Shown here in pieces: positions 536-25,003 of a stretch of 27,402 nucleotides of DNA. The stretch lies in the NCBI GenBank assembly GCA_963777155.1, contig CAVZPM010000012.1:1-27402 (forward strand). Reading direction: 5' to 3'. Below the pieces are notes generated by a model. The model ran no database searches, was not told where the DNA came from, and worked only from the letters and a program-made list of their open reading frames with translations. The DNA is from Candidatus Bathyarchaeota archaeon. Lineage in GTDB: Archaea; Thermoproteota; Bathyarchaeia; Bathyarchaeales; Bathycorpusculaceae. The translations under genes were made by a program, and so were the position numbers. The first letter of the stretch is position 1, and every line of letters starts with the position of its first letter.

Positions 536-931
536 ATGGCAAAAAACAAAGCCAACTCTATTGAACCCGGTGGTGTAGATGAATACATAACAAAATTCCC
601 TAAAGAAGAGCAAGCCAGGTTGGCTGAGATTAGGGCTGCAATACGTGAAGTAGCGCCTGACGCCATAGAAACCGTCAGTTACTTCCAAATCCCGGGATAC
701 TACTTCAAGGGTTATGATTATAATGGGATGTTTGCTTGGTTTAGTTACAAGAAACCAAATGTGCGCCTACACGTGCGTCCTCCAGTATTACAAGACTATA
801 GAAACGAACTTGCAGGCTATAGTACAACCACAGCTATCGTTAGTTTCCCATTACGCAAAGAGATACCGGTGGCGTTGGTGAAAAAACTCGTGAAAGCAAG
901 CCTAAAAGTAATGAAAAACAGCTCTAGATAG
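536..931 (+). CDS. DUF1801 / YdhG-like (iron chaperone-like) protein
   Basis: VDEYI...RLAEIRAAIREVAPDAIETVSYFQIPGY...F...EIPVALVKKLVKA pattern typical of DUF1801; GGTGA RBS upstream. Confidence 0.85.
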   Translation: MAKNKANSIEPGGVDEYITKFPKEEQARLAEIRAAIREVAPDAIETVSYFQIPGYYFKGYDYNGMFAWFSYKKPNVRLHVRPPVLQDYRNELAGYSTTTAIVSFPLRKEIPVALVKKLVKASLKVMKNSSR

Positions 932-2872: not shown

Positions 2873-2963
2873 TTAGTTAGAAGTTGAGAGTGAAAAAGAT
2901 ACAAATATAGTCTGCATCGGGTAAACTGGGAAACTGAAAAAAAGATTGAAAGTATATAGTGGA

Positions 2964-3658
2964 CTAGCGGACACCGAATAGCGAGAAGTGGTCTGTTACT
3001 CCCCAGACAATGTGGTTGGCGGAGTCAACATTTTTTGTGATGTCTATCCAATATGCTGTTTTTCCCAGGTTTTGGGATACTATGCATAAGTCTTGCAGGT
3101 TGATTTTGCCATCATGGTTCAGATCGTAACATTGATTCCATCTGGAACTGCTGTGAGTGGAACCGAAGGCTTTGGCTACGAGCAATAAGTCGGCACAGTT
3201 AACTTTTCCGTCTTTGTTGACATCACCGAGCACAATCTGACCATAATCGGTGACATCTGTCTGCCATACTTGCAGATTAGCGGGTGTAAGGTCGTCGTAG
3301 AATAAGCCAACTTTTACATGTCCAATGAACTTTGCCGTTACTTGGACATCCCAGACTTTCACGAAGCCTGTAGGGAGTATCGGAGAAGCGACTGTAGGGA
3401 CTGCGGTAACTGCTGAAATTCTGGTCCTATGTCTGACCCAGGATAGTCGTAGGTTTCGGTTGCTGATAATGATCCAGGTGTTATTACAAAGTCAAACTGT
3501 AAATGGACGCCGTTCATTTCGACTGTCACGTTGCGGCCTGCGGGAATTGGAACAGATGTCTCAGATTCCCCTTTTGCAGATTGGACGCTGAAAGCCATTG
3601 ATAACAGAGATAATAGCATTAAGCAAAGCACAAATAGGGTTACGATTTTCTTTGTCAT
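2964..3658 (-). CDS. Secreted dockerin type I domain protein, frameshifted near 3420 (joins ORFs 3359-3658 and 2964-3362)
   Basis: Signal peptide MTKKIVTLFVLCLMLL; GDVNKDGKVNCADL and YDLNHDGKINLQDL Ca-binding dockerin repeats; alternative frame ISAVTAVPTVASPILPTGFVKVW bridges the two ORFs. Confidence 0.8.
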
Positions 3659-3834
3659 TTCAATTCTTCCTTTCTAAAATAGACAGAACTGTTTCTTTTG
3701 TTATTTGAATATAAGGTTTATGGATTTTACGGATGAGTCTTCTAGACTCTACTTGATGTAAAAACAGATCGGTTCTCCACCGGTTGCGTCTGAAAAACTC
3801 TATTAGTTAAGCGTTAATTTTAGCGTTTTAGTCT

Positions 3835-6800
3835 TTAAATCTCCATTCTTTCCTTTTTCAGGACCAGGTCAGTGTCCAAGTATTTTTGGTTGTAAAGTTT
3901 TCGGATTCTCAAGATTTTTTCAGATCCTTTATCGGTCTCCCTCTCAATTATCTTGATTTCTCCTTCGAATAGGCCCAAGATGGCTTGTACTTCTTCTTGT
4001 GGATGCATCTCAGGATTTATGACCGCTAAAGTGGTGAAACCTTTAGACTTTAGATCTGCAAGAAGACCACTTAGCCATTTTCTAGTTATTACTGCGTGAT
4101 GTTGCAGCAAGACATCTGAGATGATTTCTATGCAGGCTCTTCGTGGTCCAATACGTGAGGTGTCGATTGTGCGAAACGCTCTAGTTAGAGCGATGTCGAT
4201 ATCTGTTAAACTATCTATACCTTTCAGTTTGAAAACGTTAGGCATGCTTTGGACTATAACCTCTGCCCGAGGGTTGCAGATGAACAGATAAAGAGTAGAT
4301 TTAAATTCCTCCGCTAGGGTTGACACGTTTCCTAGCTTTTCTGCAATGTAGAAGGTTGTTTGCCCGTTTATCAATCCAGCTCGAAGGAACCTCTTTATCA
4401 GTTCTTCTTTCTCGTCACTGGAGGGACTTGTCAAAATGACCGCGTAGTTTTCGGGTATTCCGCCCAATAACAGGTTGTCAAGGTCTAAGTATCCTGAGCT
4501 GACTCGGCCGGGTAATGGTGCCTCTAGAAAATTGAATGCTACGGGTTCTAGTCTTGTAAGTTATTTGATGCCCTGTTTCGTCGAAACAAATGATTCTTGG
4601 ACTGATTTCAACAGAGCCTTTTATGAATGATTTCAAGGAGATTTTGATTTCTTCAGTTATAAGAGGGGATAGTTTTTTTCCCTTTAAGGTAAAAGCCGTG
4701 CCCTCGACAGAACAATAGTCAGGTTTGGTAACTAATTCAAACCCAGCTGGAATGATGTTTTCGATCTTGGTCATTAGGACTGGTTCTTTACCTACGTTTA
4801 CAATTTGAATCTCAAAGTTTACATCTTCTCCCACTTTGATCTCGTTTCAGTGTTGGATAAGTTTGGCTTGTAGGTTTGCATGTTCAAATCTTTCTAGACC
4901 TACTGCTTTTTCCTCGTTTGGTCCTATGGTGGAGAAACTCGCCGTTGATGAAGTGATTGTTGGAGCATGGAAGATCTCACTTAATGATAATGCCAATTCT
5001 CTATCTTCCCTGACTTTTCTTAGAAGACTCTGGACGCGCTTGGTTTTTTCCATGTGCCCTGCTTTTGTAAAACATTCACCTGAGATCTGCAGCACTTTCT
5101 CGGCCATCAAGTAGAAATTAGCCTGTTTTCCAGGATCTTTTTCTCGTTTAGCGGTATCCATATAGACATAAGCGTCGAATAGACGTTGTGTGCCTAAAGC
5201 ATAGTCTGAAGCTGATTCAAAACCAGCACGAAGATAGTAATTTGCGGCTGAATTCATGTATCTGGCTGTTTCTTCATACATAGCTGTATTTCTGGTGATC
5301 TCAAATTCTGTGCCCGCTTCCAAAGCTTTGCAGAAACTACTGTGTCCTAATGCTAGCAGACTTGTGGATTCTTTTGTCGAGTGTTCATTTGCAAGAGTGA
5401 AGAGGTCTGCCGCTTCTTCATACATTATTGGAGAATTTTTTGCTTCAGCGAGAGTCATTTTTTGCCATGCTTCGCAGAGAAAGATTAGCGGCTTGACTTC
5501 TCTTCCCGTTTGCGTTGGATCGATCTCTACTATTTTTTTGAAAGTCTCTGAAGCAGAGCCGTATTTTTGGGAACTCGCTCCGTGGTCGCCTTGTTTATCG
5601 AGAATTTTTGCTTCTTCTATCGCAATTCTTCCATTGCTATAATCAACTCTAATATTTGAAGCTTGAATAAGCATCTTAACAAGATTTTGTTCGTCGGTCT
5701 TGTCGATTCTGCCCAGCTCGGTGCGAAGGATCTTTTCGGAGTCTCTTAGCAATTCGATTGCTTTCTCAAAGGTTACTATTGACTGTTCACAATTGTCTTT
5801 TCTACTTTGATCTTCTGCTTGTTCTAAAAGTGACCATGCACAGAAATTCGAAGAAAGGTGATTCCATAATTTTGATTGTTTGAGAAGGTTTGATGCTTTT
5901 TCGTAATTATTCATCGAATCTAAGTATTTGTCATTGCTATGTTCGAATTTCGCCGTTTCGATTAGGCTCCATGCCTTCATATAAGACGCGTAATCAAGGT
6001 AGAAATCGCTGAATTGACTGATTTTTTGAGCAGCAGTTTTGTACCAAACAAAGCCCTTCTCAAAATTTCCAGCAGCTTGACTGTACTCGCCAAAAATATC
6101 GAGGTTTCTTGCGATTTTCCAATAACTTTCAGCGACCCGGCTTGGCAAATCTACTTTCTTAAAATCGGTTGCTGCGTTACCATAGACTTCGTTTGCCTTT
6201 TTTAAATTCTCTTTTTCTGAAGTCAACTCATAACCATGGTCTAACATTTCTGCTAAGTTATCTTCAAATTCAGCAACAATCGCAATAAGTGATGGGACAG
6301 CACGGCATTCTATCCAATTCTTGCAATAGGAAACTCCGTCGTTCATATCAGAGATGGAGTCTTGAAGAAGGGCAATTTTGCCTTCTTCCTCATTTAGCAT
6401 AGCAAGGTCAGCTTCTATCTGCGCTGCATAAACCAATCCTACACCTAGTATCCAGGCGTTTGTTGCGAATTCTCTTTGAACAAGACTAACGTATTCTTTT
6501 CTGAAGCCCAAAGCATTTCTTAGTTGTTGTTGTTTTTCATTTTTTCCAGGTTCAAGTTTTGAATAGTAATGGTATGCTTTACTTAGAGCATGTAAGGTGG
6601 ATCCCAAGGCGTCAAGTGATCCTGAGCGAAGAGCATAATCTAGTCCTTTTTCTCCAGTTTCAATTGCTTTCCTTGAAAAAGTTAGTTTCTCCGACGTATT
6701 CGTCATGAATTCTCGTGCTATGCTCGAGTAGCTCTCTGCATAGAATAGGTAGGTTTCTGCAATTGCAGCGTCTTGGTTTACCAATTGCAGGTTTCGGATG

Positions 6801-7747
6801 GCGTCTTCTGAGTATTTAAGAATCTCTTCATGTTTCTTCTTCTTCCTATCAGGGTTTGCTTCTCCTGGAACCATCCAATCAGAAACGAAAGCGAGAAGAT
6901 AGCTTGCTATTCCTTTGAAATAGTTGTCCCCAATTATTGAAGCCTGTTCAAGCATTTCTTTTGCGCATTTCAGTGAAGATTCGATGTCATCTGTGAAAAA
7001 TAGAGTTGATAGGGTTCCAGCCCACAGCGACATCGCCTGTAAATATGGATTTTCAATTTGTGTGGAAAGTTTCAATGCGTTTTCTGAGTAACTCAAACAT
7101 TTATTTGACAATATCTTTGCATCTTTCTCTTGTTCAGAAATATTAGCAGCATACCAGGTTTGGAGGCTAGCCAAAGAATAGGCTAGAAGAAGACCGTCTT
7201 TATTTTCAAGCTCAGAATGAACAGCTATTGAAACCTCCGCAGTTTCTATTCCCAGTTTGGATATCGCTCTAACCTCTTCTCCAGTCCCTGCAATGTACAA
7301 ACGTTCAAAGAGACATTGGCATAAGATGTTAGCGGTGTTACCGTATTCTACCATGTTCCCAGAATTCTTAAAAGCCTCTAAGGCATCTCTTGCCAGATCT
7401 TGACATTTGTCTAATGCTTTTTGTTTCTCGGAAGAGCCGCTTGCAAGCCAAGAACGTGCATATTCAGCAAGGGATAGGCATAGTGAACTCTTCCCTCGGT
7501 TTTCTTTATTCAGGTTCTCTCCGAAAAGTCCAGCAGCTTTTTCGTATGCTTTGACTGCCAGCTGCCGAAGATTCTCAAATCCCTCAACATCCTTTGTCTG
7601 CCGAGAAGCTAGGTCATAGCAATAGCCTATTCTTTGCCAATAATCCTCGGCAGAAGAAATAGGTAAGGAGATAGACTGTAATATTTGCTCATATGATTTT
7701 GCCGCTTCAAACCATTTGTAGTCCTTTTCATTTTGGCTAAAATCCAT
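3835..7747 (-). CDS. Large TPR-like helical protein + Ig-like domain + C-terminal inactive KaiC/RAD55-like domain; interrupted by an in-frame TGA (4847-4849) and a +1 frameshift (~4550)
   Basis: LIQH*NEIKVGEDV continues in frame; the shifted frame reads EPVAFNFLEAPLPGRVSSGYLDLDNLLLGGIPENY (RecA/KaiC N-terminal motif); Walker A position is degenerate (TSPSSDEKE). Confidence 0.8.
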
Positions 7748-7899
7748 GAGTATAACCTACGTGCGATTATGAACCCTAAACCAAATAAAGGGGGACACAA
7801 GCATAAAACGTTTTTCAGCAGTTGCTTTTGCCTCGAACTCATAAATAAATACATGTTCTTTGCCAACAAAATAAACTCTACGTTACTTGAAGATGCAGA

Positions 7900-8667
7900 C
7901 TATTTTTCTCTGAAAAGCGACATATTGGGGTAAATCTCGATTCCAGTATTATCAATAGTGTAAGGTACAAGGTTATTGTTGACGTTTACCCCACGCATTT
8001 TCTCAACTTGCAACCCCCTTGTTGTTGTGCCGTGTGAGAACAATGTCTGCATCATTATGGAACCATGAACGAGGAATTCTTCTTCCATGATTTTGCGTTT
8101 TAACCCTAGTTGGTTGAGTTCAGTTGTAACAATAACTGTTGCTCCAAGATCTGACAGAGACTCTATCAAGTCCACGCCTGCAGTCCGCCGTTCTATGGGA
8201 TCTATAAATCTATAGAACAAAGATGCAAGAGTGTCAATAACGACACGTTTGGCATTTACTTGTTTAATTTTTTCCTCTAACTCTTGAACCAGTTTATCAA
8301 CCTGCAATTCTTTACCTCTCAGGTTGCCAACTTCTTCTTTAAGCAGTTTCTCTTTAAGCATAGCTACTCTAGATAGTCTTGTCGCATCCAAAAAATAGAA
8401 TTTTGATTCTAGCTCTGCTTTTTCAAAATTCCAGCCAAATTTCCCCATTTCAGCCAAGTAATGGCGCTTACTCTCATCTAAACTTACGAAAACACCGTTT
8501 TCGTTGTAATCACAAATGCCCTTATAGAGGAATTGTGATGCTAGAATAGTTTTTCCGGCTCCGGGTCCTCCAACAACAAGAATTACTCGACCATTTGGAA
8601 AGCCACCGCTTATCAGTTCGTCCAACCCTGGAACTCCAGTATGCACTGTTGGCAAGGTTTCCGACAA
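7900..8667 (-). CDS. Single-domain KaiC/RAD55/GvpD family RecA-superfamily ATPase
   Basis: TGVPGLDELISGG, Walker A GGPGAGKT, VSLDE, Walker B VVIDT, C-terminal VEKMRG. Confidence 0.92.
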   Translation of the reverse strand: MSETLPTVHTGVPGLDELISGGFPNGRVILVVGGPGAGKTILASQFLYKGICDYNENGVFVSLDESKRHYLAEMGKFGWNFEKAELESKFYFLDATRLSRVAMLKEKLLKEEVGNLRGKELQVDKLVQELEEKIKQVNAKRVVIDTLASLFYRFIDPIERRTAGVDLIESLSDLGATVIVTTELNQLGLKRKIMEEEFLVHGSIMMQTLFSHGTTTRGLQVEKMRGVNVNNNLVPYTIDNTGIEIYPNMSLFREK

Positions 8668-8704
8668 TAGATTCCGCTCTAAGATGGATAGGAGAACTAA
8701 AATG

Positions 8705-8719
8705 TATTTATAACTTTTG
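8705..8719 (-). promoter_or_regulatory. Archaeal BRE/TATA promoter of the KaiC-like gene
   Basis: Minus strand CAAAAG-TTATAAATA about 40 bp upstream of the TTG start. Confidence 0.5.
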
Positions 8720-8868
8720 CAGGCACCCCCTCTAACCTATTTAGAAGTATTTCGGTTCTCGACATCCTTGATAATTATAGCTTGTTAAAAGAGAAAAACT
8801 AAATAACGATACAAAAATGGTAGAGCGCCTTATCTAAATGAGGTATCTATTTTTTCACTGAGCGCTTT

Positions 8869-11800
8869 CTATGATGGTTTAGAGCAAGGGAGAAGGTTAA
8901 CTGCAAGCCGCAGCAATTCCTCTTGCGATTCAAAAGACACTTGCTCTAGCTTTCCTATATCCATGCTGTCATTAGCAAAATTGACTACGATCTTTCTGCC
9001 CATGTTTCGATGCCTAAAGAATATGAATGTTTTGTTCACTTGTTTTCTTGCCATATCTATTTCTTTTACGACTTCCGATGAAAGGTTAAAACCTGGAGTC
9101 ATTATAAGAACAAAAAACTTACTTTCCTCTAGCGCTTTATCTCTGAACCTTGTCCATTCTTCTTGCCCTTCAACTATCCGTGGGATGTCTTTGCTATCGA
9201 TAAATGTATGTAATCCAAGTTCTTCTAAACCTGCCTTCAAATGATCGGCGAAATCTTTAGCAGAACTTTTTTTGTAACAAAGGAAAACTTGGAAAGGCTT
9301 CGAACCTGCGGTAATAGTAGAATGAGTTCTGTTTTCTTCTGTGAGTGTATTTATTCTCGGTGAGGGTGACGTTTTTGCTGTTGGTATTTGACTTGGATGA
9401 ACTGTAATGGTAACTGGTTCAATGGTACTTTTCTTTCTTTGACCTAAATCATCGTTGTAGATGATTTCAGGGCTTAAAGTGTATGTATCCGGCTTTGTGG
9501 CTTTAATGGTTAGAGTATAAACTTCATTTTTGAAAGCGGGGATTCCTTTGTTATCCATCTCTGCCGTATTATCTTTGAGATTTAAGATCGGGTTTGTTGA
9601 GATAAGGTTAAAACTTGGAGGTATCAAGCCCTCGATTTTTAATAGAACCGCTGGGTTTTTGCCTGCATTAGCAACGTCGAGCCTAAGGGTGAATTCCTTA
9701 TCAACGTGGACTGATGAAGGCACCATCATGGATGAAATTATGGCAGCATGCATCAATCTCTTTCCTATCATGTTGACGATGGTTTTTGATATTGCTAGCT
9801 GACGCATACCCTCTTCGAATCGGCCTTGCTGTAAGAGGGCGCAGCAGTACCATTGTCGAATTGAACTTTCAACGCATGTTCCTGGCCGCAGTTCATTGTA
9901 ATGTTCTATGCTCTCTTGGTAGAACTTGTTCGCCTCATCCCATTGACATTTGAAAGAGAAGAAGAGGGCTTTACTAAACAAGTACAGGCTTTTTTCAAGA
10001 ACAAATCTTGAGATCAGATTCTCGTTGAATATTTTTTCGAGTTTTTTTCTGTATGCTTCTGATTTTTCCAGTTCTCCAACAAAACAGTATTCTCTTGTCA
10101 AGTTGCCATAAAGTAAAGCTTGAATTTCCTGGGAACCTATTTCTCGAGCTAATTCAACGCCTTTTTCGCTCTGCTCTATGGCAGCTTGGAAGTCTTGTTT
10201 TTCTGTCTCGGTTAGTCTTATTGTGGGTGATAGATCAAATTCCATCTTCTCATAAATCTTTGAGAAGATTCTGTCCATTGTTTGGCTTTCAGTTAAATAA
10301 CTCGACAGCCAACACCGCCAAGCTTCGCTTTCACTTTTTCTTTTTGGGTCTTCTATTTTTTGAATGGTCTTTGACAAGTCGTCAATTATACTTGCAGTTT
10401 GTTTGCAGAAGCCGCACTCCTTGGCGACTACAAATGCAACGACGAGGCTTGAGAGTTGTTTTCCTAAATCTCCTGTTTGCTCGCAGATTGCAAGTGCTCG
10501 CAAAATTGAAGCTATTGCTTCTTCCGGTTGGCCAGTGCTTGAAATCTCTTGCTCTGATCTATACATGTAAGCCATTGATAATTCGTTTGATACATCAATA
10601 ATATCTGGGAGTGATTTCATTTCTTCGAAGATCTGAAGAGAGCTCTGAAGGTCTTCCAAGGCATCTGGTATATTTCTGCACCATGACTCAACCATTCCTT
10701 TGGTGAACTTGAAGCGGGCTACCTCGAGCCGATCAATATCTGCATAAGAAACAGGTTTTCTTACTATCACAAATGCAAGATCACAATTTCCATTTAATAG
10801 GTAAGCATTAGCAGCTTTTCGTGATGTTCGAACTTTGACGAGTTGAGACTTTGTTTGCTCGCATAGTTTTTCAAACACCTTTATGGCTTCAGCTATTTCG
10901 ACATTCAAAAAGGCATCCCCCAAACCCTCGGTGGCTTCTTCCCATTGAGAAATATGTTGGGGGTTGTCCTTTGTATTATCAATCACATATTTGAAGTGTT
11001 TAATAGCTTCCATGTTTGACATTGAAGCTAGAGCATTTTTTCCAGCAGCAAGCGAAAACTGTACCGCTTTTTCTTTCATATCTGATCGAGAATAATGGTA
11101 TGCAATTATACCAATTTCCGGGATCGAGATGTCGCTACTGTTTTTCTCAAGTTCTAGTGCTATTTTACTGTGGTATATCTTTCGTTCTTCATCAGGTATC
11201 TCGTCGTAGACTATTTCTCGTGTTTTTGGATGGTCGAATCGGTAGTATGATCCGTCGCGAACAAATAGTGCATAGATTTCTGAAATAGTCTGAAAAGCAT
11301 CAGCTGTTTCAATATTGTTTTTACCAGAAAGTGAGGATAAGAGAGCTACATCAAACTTGGTAGTAAGAATAGATGCTATGTTCAAAATTTTTCTTTGTTC
11401 AGTTGTTAGATTTTCTGTTCTAAGTAAAATTATTTTTTTAAGGTCTGTTGGCAAATTTGTTTTAGTAGTTATGGTGAACTCTTGGGTTTTTTCGATTGAA
11501 CCGTGTTGCTTTTCACATAGCATTCTTAAATATTCAATTATGAAAAGGGGGTTGCCGTGGCTTTCTTTATGTAGTTTCTGAGCAAAATCTGATTGAAGAC
11601 TTTTTCCAACCATCTGAGTTGCTAAAGAAGAAACTTCACCAAGACTTAGACCCGAAGGCAAAATCTCAACTAAATTTCCGCTGCCTTTCATCTGCTTAAC
11701 ATAGTCGGTTAGAGAGTACTTTTTTTCCTTGTTAGCTTCCAAGTTTCTGTTAGAAGTTGCAATAATCAAGAGGCGCTCGGAAAGAATTGAATTAGTAATA

Positions 11801-12345
11801 TAGTGAAGAAGCTCTAGTGTGGCCGAATCAGCAAATTGTATATCCTCAATGAAAAAGATTAGAGTAGTTTTTGCACATAAGGAGAGAAACGTCTCTTTTA
11901 CTGCTCTGAAAGTTTGATTCTTCCAGGTTTGTGGTGAAATTTCACCAGAACCGGAAGGTTCAATTGGTCCATTCAGCCAGCTGATTAGTGCTGAATTGCT
12001 GATGGGGTTCTCGAGGTTTAGTTTATTATCGGTTTTTTGTGAAGGAGCAACCTCTTTTTTCTTGGTTTGCGACTCAAAATAGGTGTTAAATGCCTCGAGG
12101 AAAAGATAGTAAGGTTTTCCCGAATCCTTCAAGCATTGACCAGTCAATGTTGTGATAGACACTCTTTCGCTAAGCGAGCCCAAAAAATGGTTAACTAATC
12201 TGGTTTTTCCTAATCCATCTTCTCCTGAAATGAGAATAATTCGTCCATGACTTTCAATTGCAAATGCCAAGGATTGCAGCAATTCTTCTAGTTCTCGATT
12301 TCTACCAACGAAAGCGGATTCAAAATAAATTCTGGATTTCACCAT
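8869..12345 (-). CDS. STAND-class (AAA_16-like) ATPase-TPR-Ig-like-TIR domain protein
   Basis: FVGRNRELEEL, Walker A GEDGLGKT, Walker B FFIEDIQFAD, GNPLFI, FDHPKTRE, TPR helices; C-terminal TIR VFLCY...FADHL...TFID...ALEESKFFVLIMTPGF..S.EVVKEI; ATG 12345 preferred over TTG 12435. Confidence 0.9.
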   Translation of the reverse strand: MVKSRIYFESAFVGRNRELEELLQSLAFAIESHGRIILISGEDGLGKTRLVNHFLGSLSERVSITTLTGQCLKDSGKPYYLFLEAFNTYFESQTKKKEVAPSQKTDNKLNLENPISNSALISWLNGPIEPSGSGEISPQTWKNQTFRAVKETFLSLCAKTTLIFFIEDIQFADSATLELLHYITNSILSERLLIIATSNRNLEANKEKKYSLTDYVKQMKGSGNLVEILPSGLSLGEVSSLATQMVGKSLQSDFAQKLHKESHGNPLFIIEYLRMLCEKQHGSIEKTQEFTITTKTNLPTDLKKIILLRTENLTTEQRKILNIASILTTKFDVALLSSLSGKNNIETADAFQTISEIYALFVRDGSYYRFDHPKTREIVYDEIPDEERKIYHSKIALELEKNSSDISIPEIGIIAYHYSRSDMKEKAVQFSLAAGKNALASMSNMEAIKHFKYVIDNTKDNPQHISQWEEATEGLGDAFLNVEIAEAIKVFEKLCEQTKSQLVKVRTSRKAANAYLLNGNCDLAFVIVRKPVSYADIDRLEVARFKFTKGMVESWCRNIPDALEDLQSSLQIFEEMKSLPDIIDVSNELSMAYMYRSEQEISSTGQPEEAIASILRALAICEQTGDLGKQLSSLVVAFVVAKECGFCKQTASIIDDLSKTIQKIEDPKRKSESEAWRCWLSSYLTESQTMDRIFSKIYEKMEFDLSPTIRLTETEKQDFQAAIEQSEKGVELAREIGSQEIQALLYGNLTREYCFVGELEKSEAYRKKLEKIFNENLISRFVLEKSLYLFSKALFFSFKCQWDEANKFYQESIEHYNELRPGTCVESSIRQWYCCALLQQGRFEEGMRQLAISKTIVNMIGKRLMHAAIISSMMVPSSVHVDKEFTLRLDVANAGKNPAVLLKIEGLIPPSFNLISTNPILNLKDNTAEMDNKGIPAFKNEVYTLTIKATKPDTYTLSPEIIYNDDLGQRKKSTIEPVTITVHPSQIPTAKTSPSPRINTLTEENRTHSTITAGSKPFQVFLCYKKSSAKDFADHLKAGLEELGLHTFIDSKDIPRIVEGQEEWTRFRDKALEESKFFVLIMTPGFNLSSEVVKEIDMARKQVNKTFIFFRHRNMGRKIVVNFANDSMDIGKLEQVSFESQEELLRLAVNLLPCSKPS

Positions 12346-12656
12346 TGGCGCTCGCTCTCGATTAAAGGCAATGCGGACATGTACTTTTTTATAGGGCGTG
12401 TAACCACAAAAGCTTTGTGATTTTATATTCTTCAAAAAGCTATGGTGTGCCTTATTTTGATTTTTCTAGGGTGACAATATTATTAGAAAAGCGTGCGTTT
12501 TGGAGAGAAGGAGATTATTGAGCAGTTATCTAGAGGAAAAATCTTTCTGATTGATGTATAGTACACCATTTAATGGATCAATTTTTGTCTCAAGAGTGGC
12601 GATTTGGCAAATCTTTTATATTAATTCCAAACATAGAAGAATCGGGGAGATTTTCA

Positions 12657-15162
12657 ATGCGTCTCTTTCTCTCTATATCAGGTTTAACTAGACTGATAGC
12701 TATTTTGTTGGTCGCTATTATCGCCGTTGGCGGCGTTGGCGCCAGCTATTTCGCAGTAACACAACTAACCGGGAACAATTCTCCGCAGACGCCCACTCCA
12801 ACACCTGCACCTTCGTCCACTCCAACACTAACACCCACAATTACGCCTACGCCAACAGCCACACATTCAGCCACCCCAAGGATTACGCCAGCACCAACGA
12901 GCAACGATGTACCCATAACCCCTATTCCAAGTACTCCTACCCCAACACCCATACCCACTCTGGACCATTTCGTGTTTAGCCCCGTAAGCACTCAAAGCGT
13001 AGGCGTACCGTTTAGCATAACCGTAACAGCCGTAGACGCATCGGGGAACACACTGACAAGTTACACTGGAACTCCAACCTTAACCTATTCTGCAGGCCCA
13101 ATAACCCCAAACGCTATGGGTGCATTCGTTGGCGGAGTAGGCTCAACTTCAGTTACAGTAACTACACCGGGTTCAGGAGTCACTATCTCAACATTTGACA
13201 ATGGTCGTTCGGGAACAAGCAACGCCTTCGCTGTTTCCCCATTGATTGTCGCTTCTGCAGGAAGCGGCGGAACCATAAGTCCAACTGGAAACGTATACGT
13301 CAACAATGGAGCTGACCAAGGCTTCACCATAACAGCTAACACCGGATATCATATTGTTGCTGTTTTGGTCGATGGTGCGTCTCAGGGATCTATTTCATCC
13401 TACACCTTCACTAATGTTCATGCATCTCACGTAATTTCAGCAAGCTTTGCCGTTGACAACATTAACACCTACAATATTGCTGCTTCTGCTGGCAGTGGGG
13501 GTGCTATTAGCCCGTCTGGAAGCGTAAGCGTTAATTATGGAGCTAGCCAGACTTTCACGATAACAGCCGACAGCGGCTATCATGTCAGTGATGTTTTAGT
13601 AGATAGCATCTCTCAGGGTGCAATCTTAACCTACACTTTCACTAACGTTCAAGCCTCTCACACAATAACTGCATCCTTTTCAGCTACTACTTTTACAGTT
13701 ACTGCATTTGCTGACGTGCACTCATCCATTACGCCAGTTGGAGCTGTGATTGTTAATTTTGGTGGTAGTCAAACGTTTACTTACTTGGCAAGTTCTGGGT
13801 ATTCTATTGCCAGTGTTTTGGTTGATGGAGTTTCTGTTTCAGCCACGGGAAGCTATACTTTTAGTAATGTTCAGGCAAATCACACGATAAGTGTTTCTAC
13901 ATCGGTGAACGTACAAACTATTACTGCGTCTGCTGGTAGTGGTGGCGTTATTAGTCCGTCTGGAACGGTAAGTGTCAACTATGGTGGTAGTCAAAGCTTC
14001 ACCATAGCTGCGAATACTGGTTATCATGTTGTTGATGTAGTTGTGGATAGTGTTTCGCAAGGAGCAATTTCCTCGTATACGTTCAACAATATCCAAGGAA
14101 ACCACACAATCACCGCAAGCTTCACAATTAACAATTACGCTATTGCTGCTTCTGCGGGTAGCGGTGGAACCATCAGCCCATCTGGAACAGTATACATCGA
14201 CCATGGTGCTGGCCAAACCTTCACCGTAACAGCAGATACAGGTTATCATGTTATCGATGTTTTGGTCGACGGAGTTTCTCAAGGAGCAATCACAACCTAC
14301 ACATTCACAAACGTAGTTTCAGCTCACACAATCATCATAAATTTTGCAATTAACACTTACATTATTACTGCTTCTGCTAGGTAGTGGTGGCTCTATTGTT
14401 CCGTCTGGAAGCGTAAGCGTCAACTACGGAGCCAGTCAAACCTTCATCATTGGCCCCGTTGTTCTAGATTACCGCCTTGTTGAAATGGTTGTTGATGGTG
14501 TTTCTCAGGGCGAAATCTATTCCTACACATTTACAGATGTAATAGCAGATCATACAATTTTTGCAAGTTTTTCAAACACCCCGGATACACCTACTTTTAC
14601 TTTAACGGCTAACCCTACAACAGTTGATGTCGGAGGACAAATCCAGCTAACTGGCACACTTTCAATTCCAAAAACTGGCACAATTACTCTTACCTGCATG
14701 ACTGGAGCAGGCCAAACTTTGTGGTCCGCCTCACGCACCCTAACCAACGGTGTATATACAGAGTCAATCAACGAGCCCGGTTCTGGTACATTCCAGTACA
14801 AAGTCTCTTGGCCAGGGGACGGAACAACAAACCCCGCTACATCCAACTCAGTAACAGTCACGGTAAACCCCACGCCCACCCTAACTGTCACTAGTCCGAA
14901 TGGCGGAGAGAGCTGGGCTAGGGGCTCAACTCATTCGATTACATGGTCGTCTGTGGGAAACGTTGGATCCAATGTTAAGATTGAGTTGATGCAGGGTGGA
15001 TCGGTATATTTTGTGATTACTGAAAGTACACCTAATGATGGATCCTTTAGTGGGACGATTCCTGCCGGTACGCCGGTTGGAGCAAACTATAGAATCCGAA
15101 TAACTAGCACGTCTAATCCTGCAATCACCGATAATAGCAACGCCAACTTCTCTGTCATATAA
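12657..15162 (+). CDS. Membrane-anchored surface protein: PT-rich linker, Ig-like domain, six InlB-B-repeat-like units, C-terminal Kre9/KNH-like domain; +1 frameshift at ~14379
   Basis: N-terminal hydrophobic helix; repeats I(T/A)ASAGSGG.ISPSG...YTFTNV..HTI.ASF; LTVTSPNGGESW motif; removing one base restores TASAGSGGSIVPSG. Confidence 0.85.
13245..14575 (+). repeat. Six intragenic tandem repeats of about 74-77 aa
   Basis: Unit starts near 13245, 13476, 13698, 13920, 14142 and 14364. Confidence 0.85.
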
Positions 15163-15702: not shown

Positions 15703-18562
15703 TTGAAAAGGAGGTCTCTTCTTGTTTTCAGCATCCTAATAGTTCTACTATTCTCTGCTGTTACTTTTGATCCCTTGGGAAACAAGTACAAAATAGAAAC
15801 AGTGAAGGGAGACGAAGGAGGCACTAGTATAGGGACGCATGATTTCACTGCCTTATACGAGAAGGCCTACATTTGGGATGATCATGATAGCGGCCTTGCA
15901 GGTTCAGCAGGTGAATGGTATTTCCTCCTTTGGGGGCCATCAGATGCCAGCTCAGGCGACAGTACCGGTGAAATCGATGTAGACGGACCGCAAATGGTCG
16001 ACTTTCCTGATTTGTCCCGTACGTGGAGTGTATCAGGAAACGCAGTTCCGAAGTTTCATTTGTCAGCGTGGGAAGATGACACGCTTAATATTGAAATGGT
16101 ATGTGACTTGGATGTAGCGCGCTCAATTTTGGATTACACTCCTAACGCATGGTATCATCAATCTGAAAGGGTTGGAGACGTTACTTGTTATTTTGCCTTC
16201 GTAATAGAGAATGGCCAACCTACTGCGGCTGGTGTAGTTGGTCCCAGTTCAGGCTATAGAGGTGGAACTTATTCTTTCGACACGACAGCCTCTGATCCCA
16301 ACGATGATTCATTAACTTATGAATGGACAATTGATGGAGTAGCTCAAGTATCCACAACCTCGTCGATGAGTTACACGTTTCCAACTTGGTCCACACTTGG
16401 ATCTTACACTATCTCAGTGAGAGCAAAGGACGCGATGGGAGCATACAGCGATTGGGTGAGCAAAACTTTCACTCTTAATTCGCACGCCCTTCCTACCCTG
16501 TCAATTGATATCAACAACGGAGACGGTTACACGACCTCTACGGCAGTAACCTTATCTTTGACATACGCTGCCACCGAAGGTGCTACCGTAAGCGATATCC
16601 GATTCAGCAATGATGGCATATGGGATGTCGAGACATGGGAAGCCCCTGTTGCATCCAAAACCTGGACGCTCACAAACGGAGATGGCGGGAAAGATGTCTA
16701 CGTCCAGGCAAGAGATTCCTATGGAGCTCTCAGTAGTCTCTACGCTGATTATGTTCTTTTGGATCAGACTCCACCTACAGGTTCAATTACAATTAACGCT
16801 GGGGCTGATTCAACGTCTTCAACGTCAGTTACTCTTTCGTTGACTTTCCAAGATGAAACGTCTGGCGTCAGTCAGGTTCGGTACAGTAACGATGGAATAT
16901 GGGACACTGAAGCTTGGGACAATCCTCCCCTGCTTCCCTTAGCTTCTGAAGCTTGGACTTTGCTGCTCGGCGATGGAGCCAAGACCGTATGGTTCCAAGT
17001 CAAGGATCAGGCTGGATTGCTAAGCCCGACTTACTCAGACACAATTTACCTTGCTCTTTCTAAGGTTTCCACCCCAATGTTTAGCCCCACTGGAGGTACT
17101 TACTCTTCGACTCAAACAGTAACCATTAGCTGCGCAACGTCTAGCGCCACTATCCGCTACACAACAAACGGTGTTGACCCAACATCAACAACTGGAACAG
17201 TCTATTCTAGTCCGGTCTCAGTTCCAAGTACAATAACACTCAAAGCCAAAGCATTTGCAAGTGGAATGACAGACAGCGACACAGCCAGCGCAACATACAT
17301 CATCGCGGAAAAGGTTGCAACACCAACACTTAGCCCTGCTCCAGGATCTTATTCTACAGCTCAGTCAGTCACGATTAGCTGCGCAACTTCCGGTGCAACC
17401 ATACGATACACAACCGACGGCTCGACACCGACAACAACATCAACCGCCTACTCAACTCCAATACCCGTAAACAACGGCACAGTCATCGTTAAGGCTAAGG
17501 CTTTCAAAACCGGAATGGTAGACAGTGATACTGCCTCGGTAACATACACTGTTCTTGAAAAGGTTGCTTCACCAGTGTTAAGTCCTGGGGGAGGCGCCTA
17601 TTCTTCGACCCAGTCGGTTACAATTAGTTGTACTACTTCTGGTGCAACGATTCGGTATACCACTGATGGTTCTGATCCATCTTCAGCGTCTATGGTTTAT
17701 TCGAGTCCTATTCAAGTTGTATCTACAACAATTGTTAAAGCTATAGCGTTCAAGAGTGGTATGATAGACAGTGATGTGGCAACTGCGACTTACATGATTA
17801 CTTTGCCTCCTGTTAAGGTTGACACTCCCGTTGTTACTCCTGCGGGTGCCAGTTTCTCTTCAGCGCAATCCGTTACGATTAGTTGTTCGACTTCTGGCGC
17901 AACCATTCGGTATACTACTGATGGTTCGGAACCAACATCAACTTCTACTGCATATTCAAGTGCTATCGCGGTGAATAGCGGCACAATCACAATTAATGCT
18001 AAAGCTTTCAAGAGCGGTATGACCGACAGTGACACCGCATCAGCAACATACACCATTAACCCACAGAAGGTTGCTACTCCAAGTTTGAATCCTAGCAGGC
18101 GGCAGCTATTCGAGTGTGCAGTTTGTTACTATCTCTTGCGCGACAAGCGGAGCAACCATAAGATACACAAATGACGGCTCAGACCCAACATCATCCTCCG
18201 CAGTATACTCCAGCCCAATTGCAATAAACACTGGTACCACCACAATCAGAGCAAAAGCCTACAAAGACAGCATGACTGAAAGTGACGTTGCTTCTGCAAC
18301 CTACACAATTAACACACCAACTCCCCCGCCCACTGTAACACCAGCTCCGACTCCTAAGCCTACCCCGAGCCCAACACCAACACCTACGCCTTCACCGACT
18401 CCAACTCCAACACCAACCTCTGAGCCACCTACACCATTCCCTCAAGCCCAAGAGGCAATCTATAATCTATGGATAATTTTGCCAATAATCACAGCAATAT
18501 TTGTCGCTATAGCCCTAAGCGCTACCGTTGTGTACCTTAGAAGAAAGAAATCCGCGGATTAA
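15703..18562 (+). CDS. Secreted, C-terminally anchored surface protein with PKD/Ig-like domains and five chitobiase/beta-hexosaminidase C-terminal (Fn3-associated) repeats; +1 frameshift at ~18094
   Basis: Signal peptide; five V.TP..SP.GG.YS..Q.VTISC.TSGATIRYTTDGS.P units; PT linker, TM helix and RRKK tail; removing one base restores NPAGGSYSSVQFV. Confidence 0.88.
17065..18315 (+). repeat. Five intragenic repeats of about 250 bp
   Basis: Unit starts near 17065, 17314, 17563, 17818 and 18070. Confidence 0.85.
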
Positions 18563-19283: not shown

Positions 19284-19967
19284 TCACGCTAAAAGAGACT
19301 GTGAGTTTTGCTGAGGTTGAGCGGTTTTCTTTTTTCTGGTCATGAGCACAACGACGACTATGATAATGACGGCGACGACTGCGACGGCTCCGATGATAAG
19401 GAGCCACGGGAAGGATGTCAAAGACTCAACTGATGCTCCGCTGACGTCTATGCTGTTTATTATTGAGTTCACTTTGTCTTCGCTCTGGATTGTGGCGTCA
19501 TAGTAGGCGTGAACGTTAAAGTAATAATCGCCTTTTATGAAAACTAGCTCCGTTTTGTAGCTTTCTTCGTTGGCATCGTATCCTTCTGCATAACCCGCAA
19601 CTACTCCCGCAAAATTTGCGGTTCCACTGTCATTGAGTGAACGTGTGTCACTCACGTCGATTTCGTTAAACAGGTCTTCCGCTTCGGTTTTCAGTTGTGA
19701 GGCGGTGTAACTTGTAACCTGGGCTTTTTCGTAGAAGATTCTTACCACGTCGTAGTTGGTTTTCTCTGTGAACTCTAGCATACCTGCTCCAGCTGGGTCA
19801 TGTTCCGCGAAAGAGTCAGGGTACGCAGTTGAGTCTGTCTTTTCCCAATTGCCGTTGGGCAGTCTAACGGTTGGAGCGGCAAGTGTTGTTGCACCTTTGG
19901 CTAAAGGGATTGCAGATACAAGTAGCACTGCCAAAAGAAGCATCACTATTAATTGTCGCTTTTTCAA
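19284..19967 (-). CDS. Secreted protein with C-terminal TM anchor (possibly PsbP/DcrB-like fold)
   Basis: TTG 19967 gives KKRQLIVMLLLAVLLVSAIPLAKG signal peptide; DKVNSIINSI; C-terminal TM followed by RKKK. Confidence 0.75.
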   Translation of the reverse strand: MKKRQLIVMLLLAVLLVSAIPLAKGATTLAAPTVRLPNGNWEKTDSTAYPDSFAEHDPAGAGMLEFTEKTNYDVVRIFYEKAQVTSYTASQLKTEAEDLFNEIDVSDTRSLNDSGTANFAGVVAGYAEGYDANEESYKTELVFIKGDYYFNVHAYYDATIQSEDKVNSIINSIDVSGASVESLTSFPWLLIIGAVAVVAVIIIVVVVLMTRKKKTAQPQQNSQSLLA

Positions 19968-20070
19968 TTCTCTATTCCCATTTGTTTTGCCTAGCGTATT
20001 ATCCCTCAAACCATGGTAGGAAGAGTTCACTTTATAAAATTTGCGTGCGCTGTCTTCTTTTAATATGTGT

Positions 20071-20137
20071 GCGCAGAAAAAAGGGATTTTGTGGGTGACA
20101 TCTCCACTTGTCCCATGTTCAAATCCCATGGGTTTTT
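20071..20137 (+). repeat. tRNA-like/att-like motif with hairpin
   Basis: GCGCAGAAAAAAGGG...GTGGGTGACATCTCCACTTGT-CCCATG-TTCAAATCC-CATGGG-TTTTT. Confidence 0.7.
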
Positions 20138-21227
20138 ATGACCTAACTGTGCTAACCAGTTCTCTCCAAGGTGACAAACAGGGTTTACCTGAACCGTCTG
20201 AGAATAGAAAGCCATCGCCTCGGGCACCATGGTAGTCAATGTAATGCATCCAGGAAATACCGAATAAACCCATCTCCCTTAGGGAAGCCTCTCTTTGGGA
20301 AATGTCGTTAACAACATCAACCTGAGCTTGGGGACCCCAGAGATAATCATCAACGGAAAGATGCGCCAGCAGGATATGTTGGTTGTATTTGCTCAAAGCC
20401 TTCACATTAGCTGCTATATCGTCTATCATGTAATCCCAAACATGAGATTTGTCTCCGAATCTGTCTACCCAGTTAACATCTCCATAGTTCGTCTTCAAAT
20501 CGTCTCCACTGAGCCATTTCCCTTCTTCCACACCTCTCAAACTCCACATAGCTTGAAAACTCATAAAATCCATACTCTCCATACTAGAGGTCAAAGCTCC
20601 GTTCATACTGATGTCATCATTATAACGTGGTTCCCAACTGCCAATGCAATAGCTTACTAAAACATTGGGTGCAACTTCTTTTATTGCATTCCTAGAGTCA
20701 ATCATCAACTGATTCCAATAGGTATAATCAAGGTTTTCGTAAGCAGATGGGTCGTTAAATTCAGTTTCCAACGAAATCAAGGCTGTATGGCGACCATCAT
20801 TTGGAGCTTTCAGATGATTTGCCAAAAACCTGAGGTCATCAAGCCATTCTTGCCTGTGCAAACCGAGGCTGGCTGGTGAATAATCAACATTCCATGTGCC
20901 TGTAAAATATTGGTATGTAATCAGATGTGGAACAAGGCTCTGATTCCACAGAGGTCCAGGCAAATAATAACTAGACCACCAGCCGTAAAGGTCATCATGA
21001 CTACTTATCCATGATGTTGCTAAATTCATGCTTAACGAATAATCGCTGTTAAGGTCTTGCAAATTACTCCATGTGTCTGCGCCTGTTCCTATCAGAAATT
21101 CATCAAATGTTGCGTTTTGAGGGTCTAAACTTTTCGGAAGTACGAAAATGGCGCTAACACTAATTGCAGCAATGATAATTAGTGCCGCACTCAAAACCAG
21201 TTTCTTGAATTCGTCCACCAGCTTCAA
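20136..21227 (-). CDS. Secreted or membrane-anchored putative glycoside hydrolase (TIM-barrel-like)
   Basis: N-terminal hydrophobic helix; Trp/Tyr/Asp-rich; ISLETEFN, IKEVAPNVLV, MDFMSFQ and DGSGKP segments resemble GH superfamily proteins; family not assignable. Confidence 0.55.
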   Translation of the reverse strand: MKLVDEFKKLVLSAALIIIAAISVSAIFVLPKSLDPQNATFDEFLIGTGADTWSNLQDLNSDYSLSMNLATSWISSHDDLYGWWSSYYLPGPLWNQSLVPHLITYQYFTGTWNVDYSPASLGLHRQEWLDDLRFLANHLKAPNDGRHTALISLETEFNDPSAYENLDYTYWNQLMIDSRNAIKEVAPNVLVSYCIGSWEPRYNDDISMNGALTSSMESMDFMSFQAMWSLRGVEEGKWLSGDDLKTNYGDVNWVDRFGDKSHVWDYMIDDIAANVKALSKYNQHILLAHLSVDDYLWGPQAQVDVVNDISQREASLREMGLFGISWMHYIDYHGARGDGFLFSDGSGKPCLSPWRELVSTVRS

Positions 21228-21331
21228 CTAAGGTGAGTTGATTTATGAGTTTTGCTAACTTCAAATTCACCTAGCTCGCTGAAGAACAAATAGTTCATTC
21301 CAGAAACACTCTTTAAACGAGTTTTCGACTA

Positions 21332-21365
21332 AGAAAAAGGGGAAAGCGAGTGACATCTCCACTTG
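21332..21365 (+). repeat. Truncated copy of the att-like motif
   Basis: GTGACATCTCCACTTG (21350-21365) is 16/16 identical to 20095-20110; preceded by AGAAAAAGGGGAAAGCGA. Confidence 0.75.
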
Positions 21366-21487
21366 GGGGCGCGAGCAACCTGACAAGTATATTAATTTAG
21401 TTTTTTTAATTTTTTTTTATGTATATCTGCATGTTAGCAAGTGTTAAATCTTCACGAGGCAAAAACTAAAATCGATAAGGGAAAGGT

Positions 21488-21616
21488 ATGACTGAAAAAA
21501 AAGTGATTAGCTTTACAGAGGTTTTCGGCAAAGTTAATGCCATAGTAGTTAAAGACGGGAAAGTTGAACTTCAAGAAACCGAAATAAAAAGGTCTGATTG
21601 CTTCTGGAAGGATTAG
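21488..21616 (+). CDS. Putative 42-aa small protein
   Basis: MTEKKVISFTEVFGKVNAIVVKDGKVELQETEIKRSDCFWKD; purine-rich AAGGGAAAGGT directly upstream. Confidence 0.45.
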   Translation: MTEKKVISFTEVFGKVNAIVVKDGKVELQETEIKRSDCFWKD

Positions 21617-22139
21617 AACACGCGCACGTGCAGTTGCTTTTATTGGTAAAAGGGATTGGAGTTTAAGGGTTGAAGCGTTAGCGGCTAAACTGAAAAATAT
21701 AGAGAAATCTTCTTTGAATGTTCCAGTCGATAAGTAGAGCTTAATCTTTGGCTTGTCCTCGAAGTTTCTCCAGTTAGGCGTTGACAGCGAAACTAAAAAC
21801 AGTTTATCAGAAGTCTATTGTCTAAAGTCTATTGATAAGATGTTCTCTTTGAATCTTTCTTTAGCGAGTTTTGCTTCTTTTACACCATTTCGCATATTAT
21901 ACTAATATATCGCTGTATGTTATAAAGTCTTCTTGTTAGACACTATTCTATTTTGCACGCGAAAGCCTCTTCATTTATGTAAATAGCTTCTTTGGTTTAA
22001 ACTAAAATCAAAACGAACAGCTTGACAAACCTAACTTTCTAAAAAAAGGATGGTGCGGGAGTGGTCTTCAAGATCTCAGTTATTTCCCGTAGAGATTTGT
22101 CTTATTATTTAGGTGAATAAAACAGGTAGAGCAATAAAC

Positions 22140-23420: not shown

Positions 23421-23812
23421 TTTAATCGCCTGACAAATATTCATTCGTATGAGGTATTAAGTTCTTGCTAAAAGAGACCTAGATTTTCTGAATCCATTGT
23501 TGAGAATTAAGAAAGATTTTCGTGGTTTGGAGAGTTTTGTTCCTTTTTTGGTGGGTGGTTTTTTATTTGTTGTTTTTTGTTTTTTTTTAGTTGATAGTGG
23601 TTTGCTTTTGCAAGTGTTTCATAAGATTTGGGTCTTTTCAATCGGATAGACAAGCACATTTGCTTAATTTGACACGTTTGTTAAGTTGAGTTTTGAAAAA
23701 TTGCTAAAGTTGACAATTAGCGTTATTGGACTTTTCAAAAAAATATATATCAAGTCATACGATAAGAGGAGTTAGCAAGAAACGGCAGCGTTATTTGGAG
23801 GAAAAAAGAAAA

Positions 23813-25000: not shown

Positions 25001-25003
25001 AAG

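Follow-up and report, generated by a model that had tools for sequence, protein, structure and literature searches.

In a window of 27,402 nucleotides (nt), the complete contig CAVZPM010000012.1 of a Candidatus Bathyarchaeota archaeon (assembly GCA_963777155.1; genome of 2.29 Mb in 39 contigs, 90.6% complete), three adjacent genes on the minus strand encode, first, a STAND NTPase-TPR-Ig-TIR protein (gene 1, or STAND-TIR), second, a single-domain active KaiC-like ATPase (gene 2) and, last, a TPR-Ig protein that ends in a dead KaiC domain (gene 3), with gaps of 201 nt between genes 1 and 2 and 152 nt between genes 2 and 3. Coordinates and strand in the list of open reading frames (ORFs) confirm the adjacency and common orientation described in an earlier reading of these letters (the sequence-only reading), which had gone on to propose that two TPR sensors feed a KaiC hub with a TIR output. 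We find that KaiC and the TPR-Ig-dead-KaiC protein are a conserved, co-inherited accessory module in Bathyarchaeia, and that the C-terminus of the STAND-TPR-Ig family has been switched repeatedly among TIR, dead KaiC and nothing. The trio as a conserved system is weakly supported, recurring in one other genome with a different gene order.

Three genes on one strand

The features of the locus are these:

8869 to 12345, minus: gene 1, STAND NTPase (AAA_16 type), TPR, Ig (DUF11-like) and TIR (ORF list, Pfam)
11764 to 12312, minus: STAND P-loop NTPase domain of gene 1 (AAA_16; Walker A GEDGLGKT and Walker B-like FFIEDIQFAD, read from the translation)
9478 to 9720, minus: Ig-like domain of gene 1, DUF11/BatD-like (Pfam DUF11, 0.0096), homologous to the Ig domain of gene 3
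9007 to 9288, minus: TIR domain of gene 1 (Pfam TIR_2, structure model, Foldseek)
9061 to 9063, minus: codon of the putative catalytic Glu of the TIR, E1125 in the 1188-residue ORF and E1095 in the 1158-residue form (alignment to Roq1 and L6)
8787 to 8820, minus: oligo-T runs after the gene 1 stop, probably terminator-like for archaea (read from the sequence)
8705 to 8718, minus: putative B recognition element (BRE)/TATA-like box, AAAAG plus TTATAAATA, about 40 nt upstream of the KaiC start (read from the sequence)
7900 to 8667, minus: gene 2, single-domain active KaiC-like ATPase of 255 residues (Pfam PF06745)
4850 to 7747, minus: gene 3 part 1, a TPR-like alpha-solenoid of 966 residues (structure model, Foldseek, weak Pfam TPR_12)
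4847 to 4849, minus: in-frame TGA at the start of the Ig domain of gene 3 (sequence, translation)
4478 to 4846, minus: gene 3 part 2, Ig-like (DUF11) domain (Pfam DUF11 0.0021, TIGR01451 1.2e-5; ORF 4478-4834, 118 residues)
4551 to 4553 (4552), minus: 1-nt insertion, a frameshift between the Ig and dead-KaiC parts (alignment to the relative L081; metagenome contigs)
3835 to 4560, minus: gene 3 part 3, dead KaiC (iKaiC) domain (listed ORF 3835-4467, 210 residues; frame open to about 4560)

Gene 1 encodes 1158 amino acids (aa) from an ATG at 12345, the length also given by the database gene call (P0001), and its frame is open upstream to a TTG at 12435 (the 1188-aa ORF); a TATA-like box at about 12383-12393 falls within this longer form. 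Pfam finds AAA_16 at residues 42-224 (E = 1.1e-17, 65.4 bits against a cut-off of 32.6), TPR_12 (1.1e-7), a weak DUF11-like Ig match (0.0096) and TIR_2 (1.4e-11, 45.4 bits against a cut-off of 28). The NTPase-helical region, residues 39-498, matches TIGR03903 at 4.3e-45, far under the family cut-off, and a paralogue of gene 1 also matches NB-ARC (5.9e-7). With a P-loop domain followed by a helical part and repeats, gene 1 has the makeup of a STAND NTPase. Its Ig domain aligns with that of the G019 orthologue of gene 3 by BLASTP (E = 5e-12), and comparison of the gene 1 and gene 3 Ig alignments with hhalign gives a probability of 97.3% (E = 1.6e-11, 77 columns).

An AlphaFold2 (AF2) model of the last 163 residues of gene 1 has a pLDDT of 84.2, and its top Foldseek matches are AbTir, RPP1, SARM1, TIR-1 and SPARTA, with a probability of 1.00 to the TIRs of AbTir, RPP1, SARM1 and SPARTA, so that Pfam, AF2 and Foldseek agree on a TIR fold. 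E1125 aligns to the Glu in the W-C-L-x-E-L motif of Roq1 and L6, which we take to be the catalytic Glu, and the equivalent residue is invariant in 8/8 STAND-TIR relatives and in 25/25 TIR domains of the subfamily. The closest STAND-TIR relatives, P0002 and P0003, are 87% and 83% identical; relatives with a named source are Bathyarchaeia. Gene 1 is intact and its key residues are conserved, and the description of it as a STAND ATPase-TPR-Ig-TIR protein is borne out by domain matches and fold, that of a TIR with a catalytic Glu at the level of the alignment.

Gene 2 matches PF06745 over nearly the full domain (6e-57; 193.1 bits where the cut-off is 26.6, covering positions 1-229 of the 231 in the profile) and carries GGPGAGKT (Walker A), SLDES and VVIDTLA, which makes it an intact KaiC-like ATPase, as first read. 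Orthologues in other Bathyarchaeia are 63-89% identical, and 28/28 gene 2 orthologues keep the Walker A GGPGxGKT, the Walker B Asp and the DE acidic pair unchanged. It shares the RecA-like fold, Walker A, Walker B and catalytic acidic pair with cyanobacterial KaiC, from which it differs in having one 255-aa domain rather than two, in scoring below the clock-KaiC equivalogs NF006799 and TIGR02655 (166.8 against 408 bits and 113.7 against 546 bits), and in that the inactive domain here sits on a separate protein; a bona fide circadian KaiC was rejected on the single domain and the scores.

Gene 3 is present in the window as three ORFs, split by the in-frame TGA and the 1-nt insertion. The AF2 model of the 966-aa part is all-helical, with 37 helices (pLDDT 89.9), and its top Foldseek matches, Ctr9, IFT-A TPR proteins, Ski3 and LGN, are long TPR scaffolds; the ESM Atlas gives weak TPR-type leads for the N-terminus, with recognition under the usual level. 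The dead KaiC part scores 29.1 bits against PF06745 over the open frame and 22.8 bits for the 210-aa ORF, and matches DUF7504 as well, with orthologues at 24.5-65.3 bits. Aligned to active KaiC, its Walker A position reads TSPSSDEK, and GK[ST] is missing there in 27/27 dead-KaiC relatives. Gene 3 orthologues elsewhere are single ORFs, of 1309 aa in G019 (81% identity), 1375 aa in G030, 1287 aa in G039, and 1303-1346 aa at many other loci. The domain string TPR-Ig-dead-KaiC proposed for gene 3 therefore stands, while a single intact gene, in this assembly, does not.

The two breaks were traced separately. The TGA is in frame with ORF 4478-4834; relatives carry GGA or GAA at this site (Glu in the G019 orthologue), and in 3/4 metagenome runs part of the depth there shows no listed difference, a further 261 differences lying outside the listing. 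We rejected a recoded TGA given the codons of the relatives and no other sign of recoding. In the alignment to the closest gene 3 relative, L081 (90% nt identity over 2911-7879), the insertion at 4552 is the sole frameshifting indel in the window copy, and once the extra base is removed the frame continues through to the dead KaiC domain, in agreement with the G019 protein. In four metagenome runs, contigs compared at 85% likeness lack the base at 4551-4553 in all of the covering depth (X1, 20.7 of 20.7; X2, 14.5 of 14.5; X3, 6.57 of 6.57; X4, 11.1 of 11.1), so the insertion may be an assembly error. The breaks may be either real mutations or assembly errors, as the metagenome contigs are from relatives, the best run containing 0.27 of the window words, and do not separate a pseudogene from an error of assembly.

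Pairing of KaiC with dead-KaiC proteins in Bathyarchaeia

Archaeal KaiC-like ATPases and their inactivated iKaiC partners have been proposed as signal-transduction hubs (Makarova, Galperin and Koonin 2017, mBio 8:e01959-17, as cited in PMC5847659 and PMC13700489). The dead KaiC domain of gene 3 belongs with iKaiC in being a KaiC-like sequence that has lost its P-loop and in its genomic pairing with an active KaiC. We scanned species-representative genomes with a dead-KaiC alignment, retained 75 loci from the 221 related stretches that it picked up, and sorted the 84 dead-KaiC-bearing ORFs of these loci by BLAST against the window domains, counting a KaiC as nearby at an identity of at least 55% and within 5 kb:

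TPR-Ig-dead KaiC: 30 ORFs; KaiC within 5 kb, 17; none with at least 5 kb on both flanks, 6; contig too short, 7
wHTH-dead KaiC: 11 ORFs; KaiC within 5 kb, 10; none with at least 5 kb on both flanks, 0; contig too short, 1
wHTH-Ig-dead KaiC: 3 ORFs; KaiC within 5 kb, 3; none, 0; contig too short, 0
STAND-Ig-dead KaiC: 18 ORFs; KaiC within 5 kb, 2; none with at least 5 kb on both flanks, 4; contig too short, 12
STAND-dead KaiC: 6 ORFs; KaiC within 5 kb, 0; none with at least 5 kb on both flanks, 3; contig too short, 3
Ig-dead KaiC: 10 ORFs; KaiC within 5 kb, 2; none with at least 5 kb on both flanks, 3; contig too short, 5
Other dead-KaiC architectures: 6 ORFs; KaiC within 5 kb, 1; none with at least 5 kb on both flanks, 1; contig too short, 4

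The KaiC gene near TPR-Ig-dead-KaiC genes is mostly convergent and 57-430 nt away. At one locus (G030:C10), KaiC, a TPR-Ig-dead-KaiC gene and a wHTH-dead-KaiC gene stand together with a bactofilin-domain neighbour; the window has no wHTH-dead-KaiC gene. Within the genus, a survey of 120 genomes (KaiC at E up to 1e-60, dead KaiC at E up to 1e-40) finds KaiC in 18 and dead KaiC in 16, with both in 15 and neither in 101; KaiC is alone in three genomes (65-88% complete) and dead KaiC in one (80% complete), in counts that come from related genomes and are not independent. This co-occurrence pattern marks the two as one accessory module, and together with the synteny (17/30) it upholds the view that KaiC and the TPR-Ig-dead-KaiC protein belong together.

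As far as the iKaiC hub is known through passages that cite it, the present genes resemble it on three counts: an active single-domain KaiC adjoins P-loop-less KaiC proteins, the partners carry a fused domain, either sensor-like (TPR) or DNA-binding (wHTH), and the module is accessory with a patchy spread. They differ from the hub so described in that the partner family here includes STAND NTPase-TPR-Ig proteins and the dead KaiC is exchanged for, or fused with, TIR.

Some observations accompany these loci. A small dockerin-domain protein (window 2964-3362; Dockerin_1, 1.2e-12) and a 99-aa ORF with a signal-peptide-like start (window 3359-3658) follow gene 3; dockerin homologues occur near the TPR-Ig-dead-KaiC genes of L081, L083, L085, L086, L099 and L113, and near a 5'-cut Ig-dead-KaiC ORF of L096, and the dockerin protein may be a conserved neighbour or target. 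Three dead-KaiC loci (L083, L114, L155) are assigned to bacteria (Limnocylindrales, Eubacteriales), and since their genes are 59-77% identical to Bathyarchaeia ones, the contigs are probably mis-binned.

Exchange and fusion of TIR and dead KaiC

The STAND-TPR-Ig family is expanded in the lineage, being present in 15/41 relatives and often multicopy. In the 91 best full-family relatives, hidden Markov models detect a terminal TIR in 8, a terminal dead KaiC in 16, and no such end in the other 67. In a tree of the shared N-terminal part, built from 83 rows after removal of the 8 under 950 aa, the end-domain label changes at least 12 times, with at least 4 changes for TIR and at least 8 for dead KaiC; a dead-KaiC form is nested in the window's TIR clade and a TIR form in a dead-KaiC clade. 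IQ-TREE on 30 rows again gives at least 4 TIR changes, and the approximately unbiased (AU) test rejects a single TIR clade (p = 4.8e-15, for a group named after the tree had been seen).

The same TIR subfamily is fused to dead KaiC in five protein clusters of three architectures: TIR-linker-dead KaiC (P0121, which is L069, and P0122), TIR-TRASH-like-Ig-dead KaiC (P0135, with a normal Met start), and a DUF7504-type KaiC-like domain followed by TIR (P0242, P0243). It also stands alone, as an X-TIR protein of 249 aa and a TIR-TRASH protein of 217 aa in the source genome, and as similar small proteins in about 30/120 genus genomes. Across these contexts the TIR part is 57-87% identical, and among STAND-TIR relatives the sensor part is at 36-49% identity as against 64-87% for the TIR part. 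The C-terminal switching and the fusions tie the TIR evolutionarily to the KaiC network, and they would explain the adjacency of the genes here and in one other genome.

Neither STAND-TPR-Ig proteins as carriers of dead KaiC nor an exchange or fusion of TIR and dead KaiC was found in the literature searched, which did not extend to the 2017 KaiC/iKaiC survey and its supplements. It is this family pattern of swap and fusion that looks new. The suggestion that the locus is a new system holds to that extent: pairing of KaiC with dead KaiC is already part of the proposed iKaiC hub, as its citing passages give it, and a TIR/dead-KaiC link is absent from the literature covered.

Members of the TIR subfamily repeatedly carry a TRASH-type Cys motif after the TIR; the motif also occurs in the P0135 linker (residues ~195-235), and the 217-aa TIR-TRASH gene (G000:C13:9960-10613, which is L157 8960-9613) adjoins a ParA/MinD-like ATPase. 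STAND-TPR-Ig(-dead-KaiC) genes often form tandem pairs on one strand (L090, L100, L106, L133).

One system or two modules

A locus with all three gene types on one strand was found in one other genome (G041:C16; the genome is G120 in the genus searches). Its order is KaiC (88% identical), STAND-TPR-Ig-TIR, a 3.6-kb gap and TPR-Ig-dead KaiC, the last fragmented in that assembly, and its STAND-TIR is 45% identical overall and 87% in the TIR part; the order differs from that in the window, and the STAND part has strongly diverged, so the two trios are not recent copies of one block. Neither KaiC nor STAND-TIR lies beside gene 3 in its closest relatives, L081 and G019. Synteny between the window and L081 ends at 7879, between gene 3 and KaiC, and in G019 a papain-like peptidase and a TrmB-CBS regulator stand beside the gene 3 orthologue instead. 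At nine metagenome loci there are STAND-TPR-Ig-TIR relatives of 35-49% identity; a tblastn scan found KaiC at 0/51 loci and dead KaiC at 0/9 STAND-TIR loci, where the neighbours are mostly metabolic or housekeeping genes. In the genus, Ig-TIR is fused to STAND in 4/120 genomes (G000, G120, G090, G012), and searches of G090, which has an intact 1125-aa STAND-TIR frame, and of G012, which has a fragmented copy, gave no KaiC or dead-KaiC hits. The three genes thus co-occur in G041, and the synteny is not conserved across the other relatives.

Gene 1 itself carries no dead KaiC domain and so lacks that means of docking to KaiC. As read from the sequence, a TATA-like box stands upstream of every one of the three genes, and T-runs come after genes 1 and 2; own boxes and T-runs suggest separate transcripts. 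From these features STAND-TIR appears autonomous, and the scheme of two TPR sensors feeding a KaiC hub with a TIR output loses its footing, since STAND-TIR has relatives without KaiC, its own promoter-like box and no dead KaiC domain.

We therefore lean, with some reserve, towards reading the window as two modules of one combinatorial Bathyarchaeia signalling toolkit, with an autonomous STAND-TIR beside a KaiC pair, and not as a fixed three-gene machine. The first module would be an accessory KaiC hub pair, a single-domain active KaiC and a partner of about 1300 aa, in which the TPR solenoid and the Ig domain would take up a signal and the C-terminal dead KaiC would dock onto the KaiC ring; wHTH-dead-KaiC proteins, paired elsewhere with the same KaiC, would serve as transcriptional output. 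The second module would be an NLR-like STAND-TPR-Ig-TIR protein, most likely working alone. Its TPR-Ig part would bind a ligand, the NTPase would then drive oligomerisation, the TIR domains would be brought together, and the assembled TIRs would cleave NAD+, either draining NAD+ or making a signal. Members of the STAND family that end in dead KaiC would plug into the hub via KaiC, and those that end in TIR would act directly.

Several points weigh against this two-module reading. TIR/dead-KaiC fusions are rare, with five clusters in the protein collection, and a search of 401 Bathyarchaeia genomes gave no full-length match to the P0135 fusion. The L069 fusion frame (673-2103) has no ATG, GTG or TTG ahead of the point where the conserved TIR begins, with a stop only four codons upstream; initiation at the earliest canonical start, a TTG at 748, would remove the first TIR strand. 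Only L031 of the nine STAND-TIR metagenome loci has 10 kb on both sides, and a KaiC a few kilobases away could be missed at the other eight. G090 is just 85% complete, and the copy in G012 (95% complete) is fragmented. The recurrence of the trio in G041 may reflect a functional tie closer than an autonomous STAND-TIR would have, and if both gene 3 lesions are real, the KaiC module may be dead in this organism.

A bolder form of the toolkit, which we regard as possible though doubtful, makes the TIR a true output of the KaiC hub: STAND-TPR-Ig sensors would either dock by a dead-KaiC adaptor or carry TIR, and NAD+ cleavage by TIR-dead-KaiC proteins would be set by the ATPase or phosphorylation state of KaiC. 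If true, it would amount to an NLR-like network for immunity or stress in archaea, KaiC being the counterpart of the adaptor and oligomerisation domains of eukaryotic innate immunity.

That the trio is integrated, with STAND-TPR and TPR-Ig-dead-KaiC proteins sensing, the KaiC hexamer integrating and the TIR as regulated output, we consider unlikely. The short gaps on one strand and the reappearance of the same gene types in G041 despite a STAND part at 45% identity speak for it, as do the fusions and swaps of TIR and dead KaiC that link TIR to the hub, and genes 1 and 3 could share a contact through their homologous Ig domains. It is hard to reconcile with a STAND-TIR that lacks a dead KaiC domain, with promoter-like boxes and T-runs between the genes, with the different order in G041, with KaiC at 0/9 metagenome STAND-TIR loci, with STAND-TIR in G090 and G012 in genomes without KaiC or dead-KaiC hits, and with gene 3 neighbours in L081 and G019 that are neither KaiC nor STAND-TIR.

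NLR-like STAND sensors include the plant TNLs Roq1 and RPP1 and the bacterial Avs and bNACHT proteins. Gene 1 resembles them in joining a STAND NTPase to a repeat sensor and a TIR with a putative catalytic Glu, and the TNLs in particular in that Roq1 and L6 are its best sequence matches among solved structures and RPP1 is among the best fold matches. It differs from TNLs in its reversed domain order, the TIR being C-terminal after TPR and Ig, and from NLRs and Avs in an NTPase that is AAA_16/MalT-like (the TIGR03903 region), not NB-ARC or NACHT, and in matching none of the PADLOC models for such systems. With Thoeris ThsB, SPARTA TIR-APAZ and AbTir it shares the TIR fold, the conserved Glu and weak ThsB-type profile matches (1e-5; NF058526, 26.4 bits). 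Thoeris is set apart by the NF058526 score (26.4 against 220 bits), and both Thoeris and SPARTA by the window ORFs scanned with Pfam, which include no SIR2/SLOG protein and no ThsA- or Argonaute-type partner. In contrast to prokaryotic defence TIRs, the subfamily of gene 1 is unusually conserved, at 57-87% identity.

A defence role, as the sequence-only reading had offered, finds no direct support. PADLOC-DB 2.0 returns matches at the TIR level (ThsB 1e-5, SAVED_TIR 1.3e-5, PDC-S66 1.1e-4) and a weak mad8 match, with no match for the gene 3 parts and no Avs or other named STAND system model, so that the TIR is recognised and a named system is not; the neighbours of relatives are mostly housekeeping genes. 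Hints toward conflict are the patchy spread, the fast sensor beside a conserved TIR, the fragmented copies in G012 and G041, and nearby terminases.

The right part of the window (19284-27402) is virus-like, with these two features:

25004 to 26458: large terminase subunit (Terminase_6N 3.7e-19, phrog_2 1.2e-40)
26391 to 26846: D5-like regulator piece

The identity of this terminase to those of phages and haloviruses does not exceed 26%, and it has paralogues in the same genome on C11 (64%), C27 (63%) and C9 (77%, partial). Uncharacterised ORFs of 281, 363 and 434 aa lie on the same strand in this region. The 363-aa ORF (window 20136-21227) is 97% identical to C13:50126-51214, and a DUF1801 gene (window 536-931) is 98% identical to C36:134545-134937, both in the same genome; these near-identical second copies may be recent duplications or mobile DNA. 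Between the trio and this region lie two overlapping same-strand ORF pairs with Ig-like or CHB_HEX_C domains (window 12573-15162, 603 and 272 aa; 15703-18562, 823 and 148 aa), both of which may be further frameshifted surface-protein genes. Terminases also lie near TIR genes elsewhere: a stand-alone TIR is 37 nt from a 76%-identical terminase in L175 (G015:C2, 1501-3408), a TIR adjoins a 28%-identical terminase-like gene in L167 (G085:C1), and the fragmented STAND-TIR of L026 (G012:C14, 4199-11632) is about 2.5 kb from an 80%-identical terminase.

On these grounds STAND-TIR could be carried by a mobile element of viral origin, or lie next to one, and act in defence or superinfection exclusion, with the KaiC adjacency an accident of a variable island, and we think this improbable. 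The terminase and D5-like piece in the window, the terminases near a STAND-TIR homologue in G012 and next to stand-alone TIRs of the subfamily in L175 and L167, the patchiness of STAND-TIR (4/120 genomes), the fast divergence of its sensor part against a conserved TIR part, and a synteny with the closest relative that stops exactly between gene 3 and KaiC all fit such an origin. The window terminase, however, is 12.6 kb off with surface-protein genes between, its closeness may be chance, as the genome has several paralogues of it, PADLOC has no system model that matches, and the metagenome neighbours are mostly metabolic or housekeeping genes; a search for an inserted element around KaiC and STAND-TIR found no flanking direct or inverted repeats above chance-size matches and no tRNA in the window.

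Least probable, in our view, is a decaying locus without function here, with gene 3 a pseudogene and KaiC left without its only partner: gene 3 has two independent lesions and is the only dead KaiC of its type in this 90.6%-complete genome, and fragmentation also affects relatives of STAND-TIR and gene 3 in G012 and G041, but KaiC and STAND-TIR are intact with conserved key residues, the insertion is absent in all contigs of the 4/4 runs, and a GTG at 4834 could start an Ig-dead-KaiC protein of a kind that occurs elsewhere at 400-424 aa.

No candidate signalling family of archaea is, to our knowledge, more expanded or less understood than the KaiC-like ATPases, whose hub inputs and outputs are nearly unexplored. 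What the locus and its relatives offer is a set of parts: one KaiC, one dead-KaiC adaptor, input or output heads of the TPR-Ig, STAND-TPR-Ig and wHTH types, and a TIR that replaces or joins the adaptor. If the TIR is not wired to KaiC, the window still gives a clear case of the KaiC/iKaiC pairing already known, next to an unremarkable NLR-like TIR protein. If it is, this would be the first connection of an NAD+-consuming immune-type enzyme with the archaeal KaiC network, and STAND/NLR-like sensors would be using a RecA-fold adaptor.

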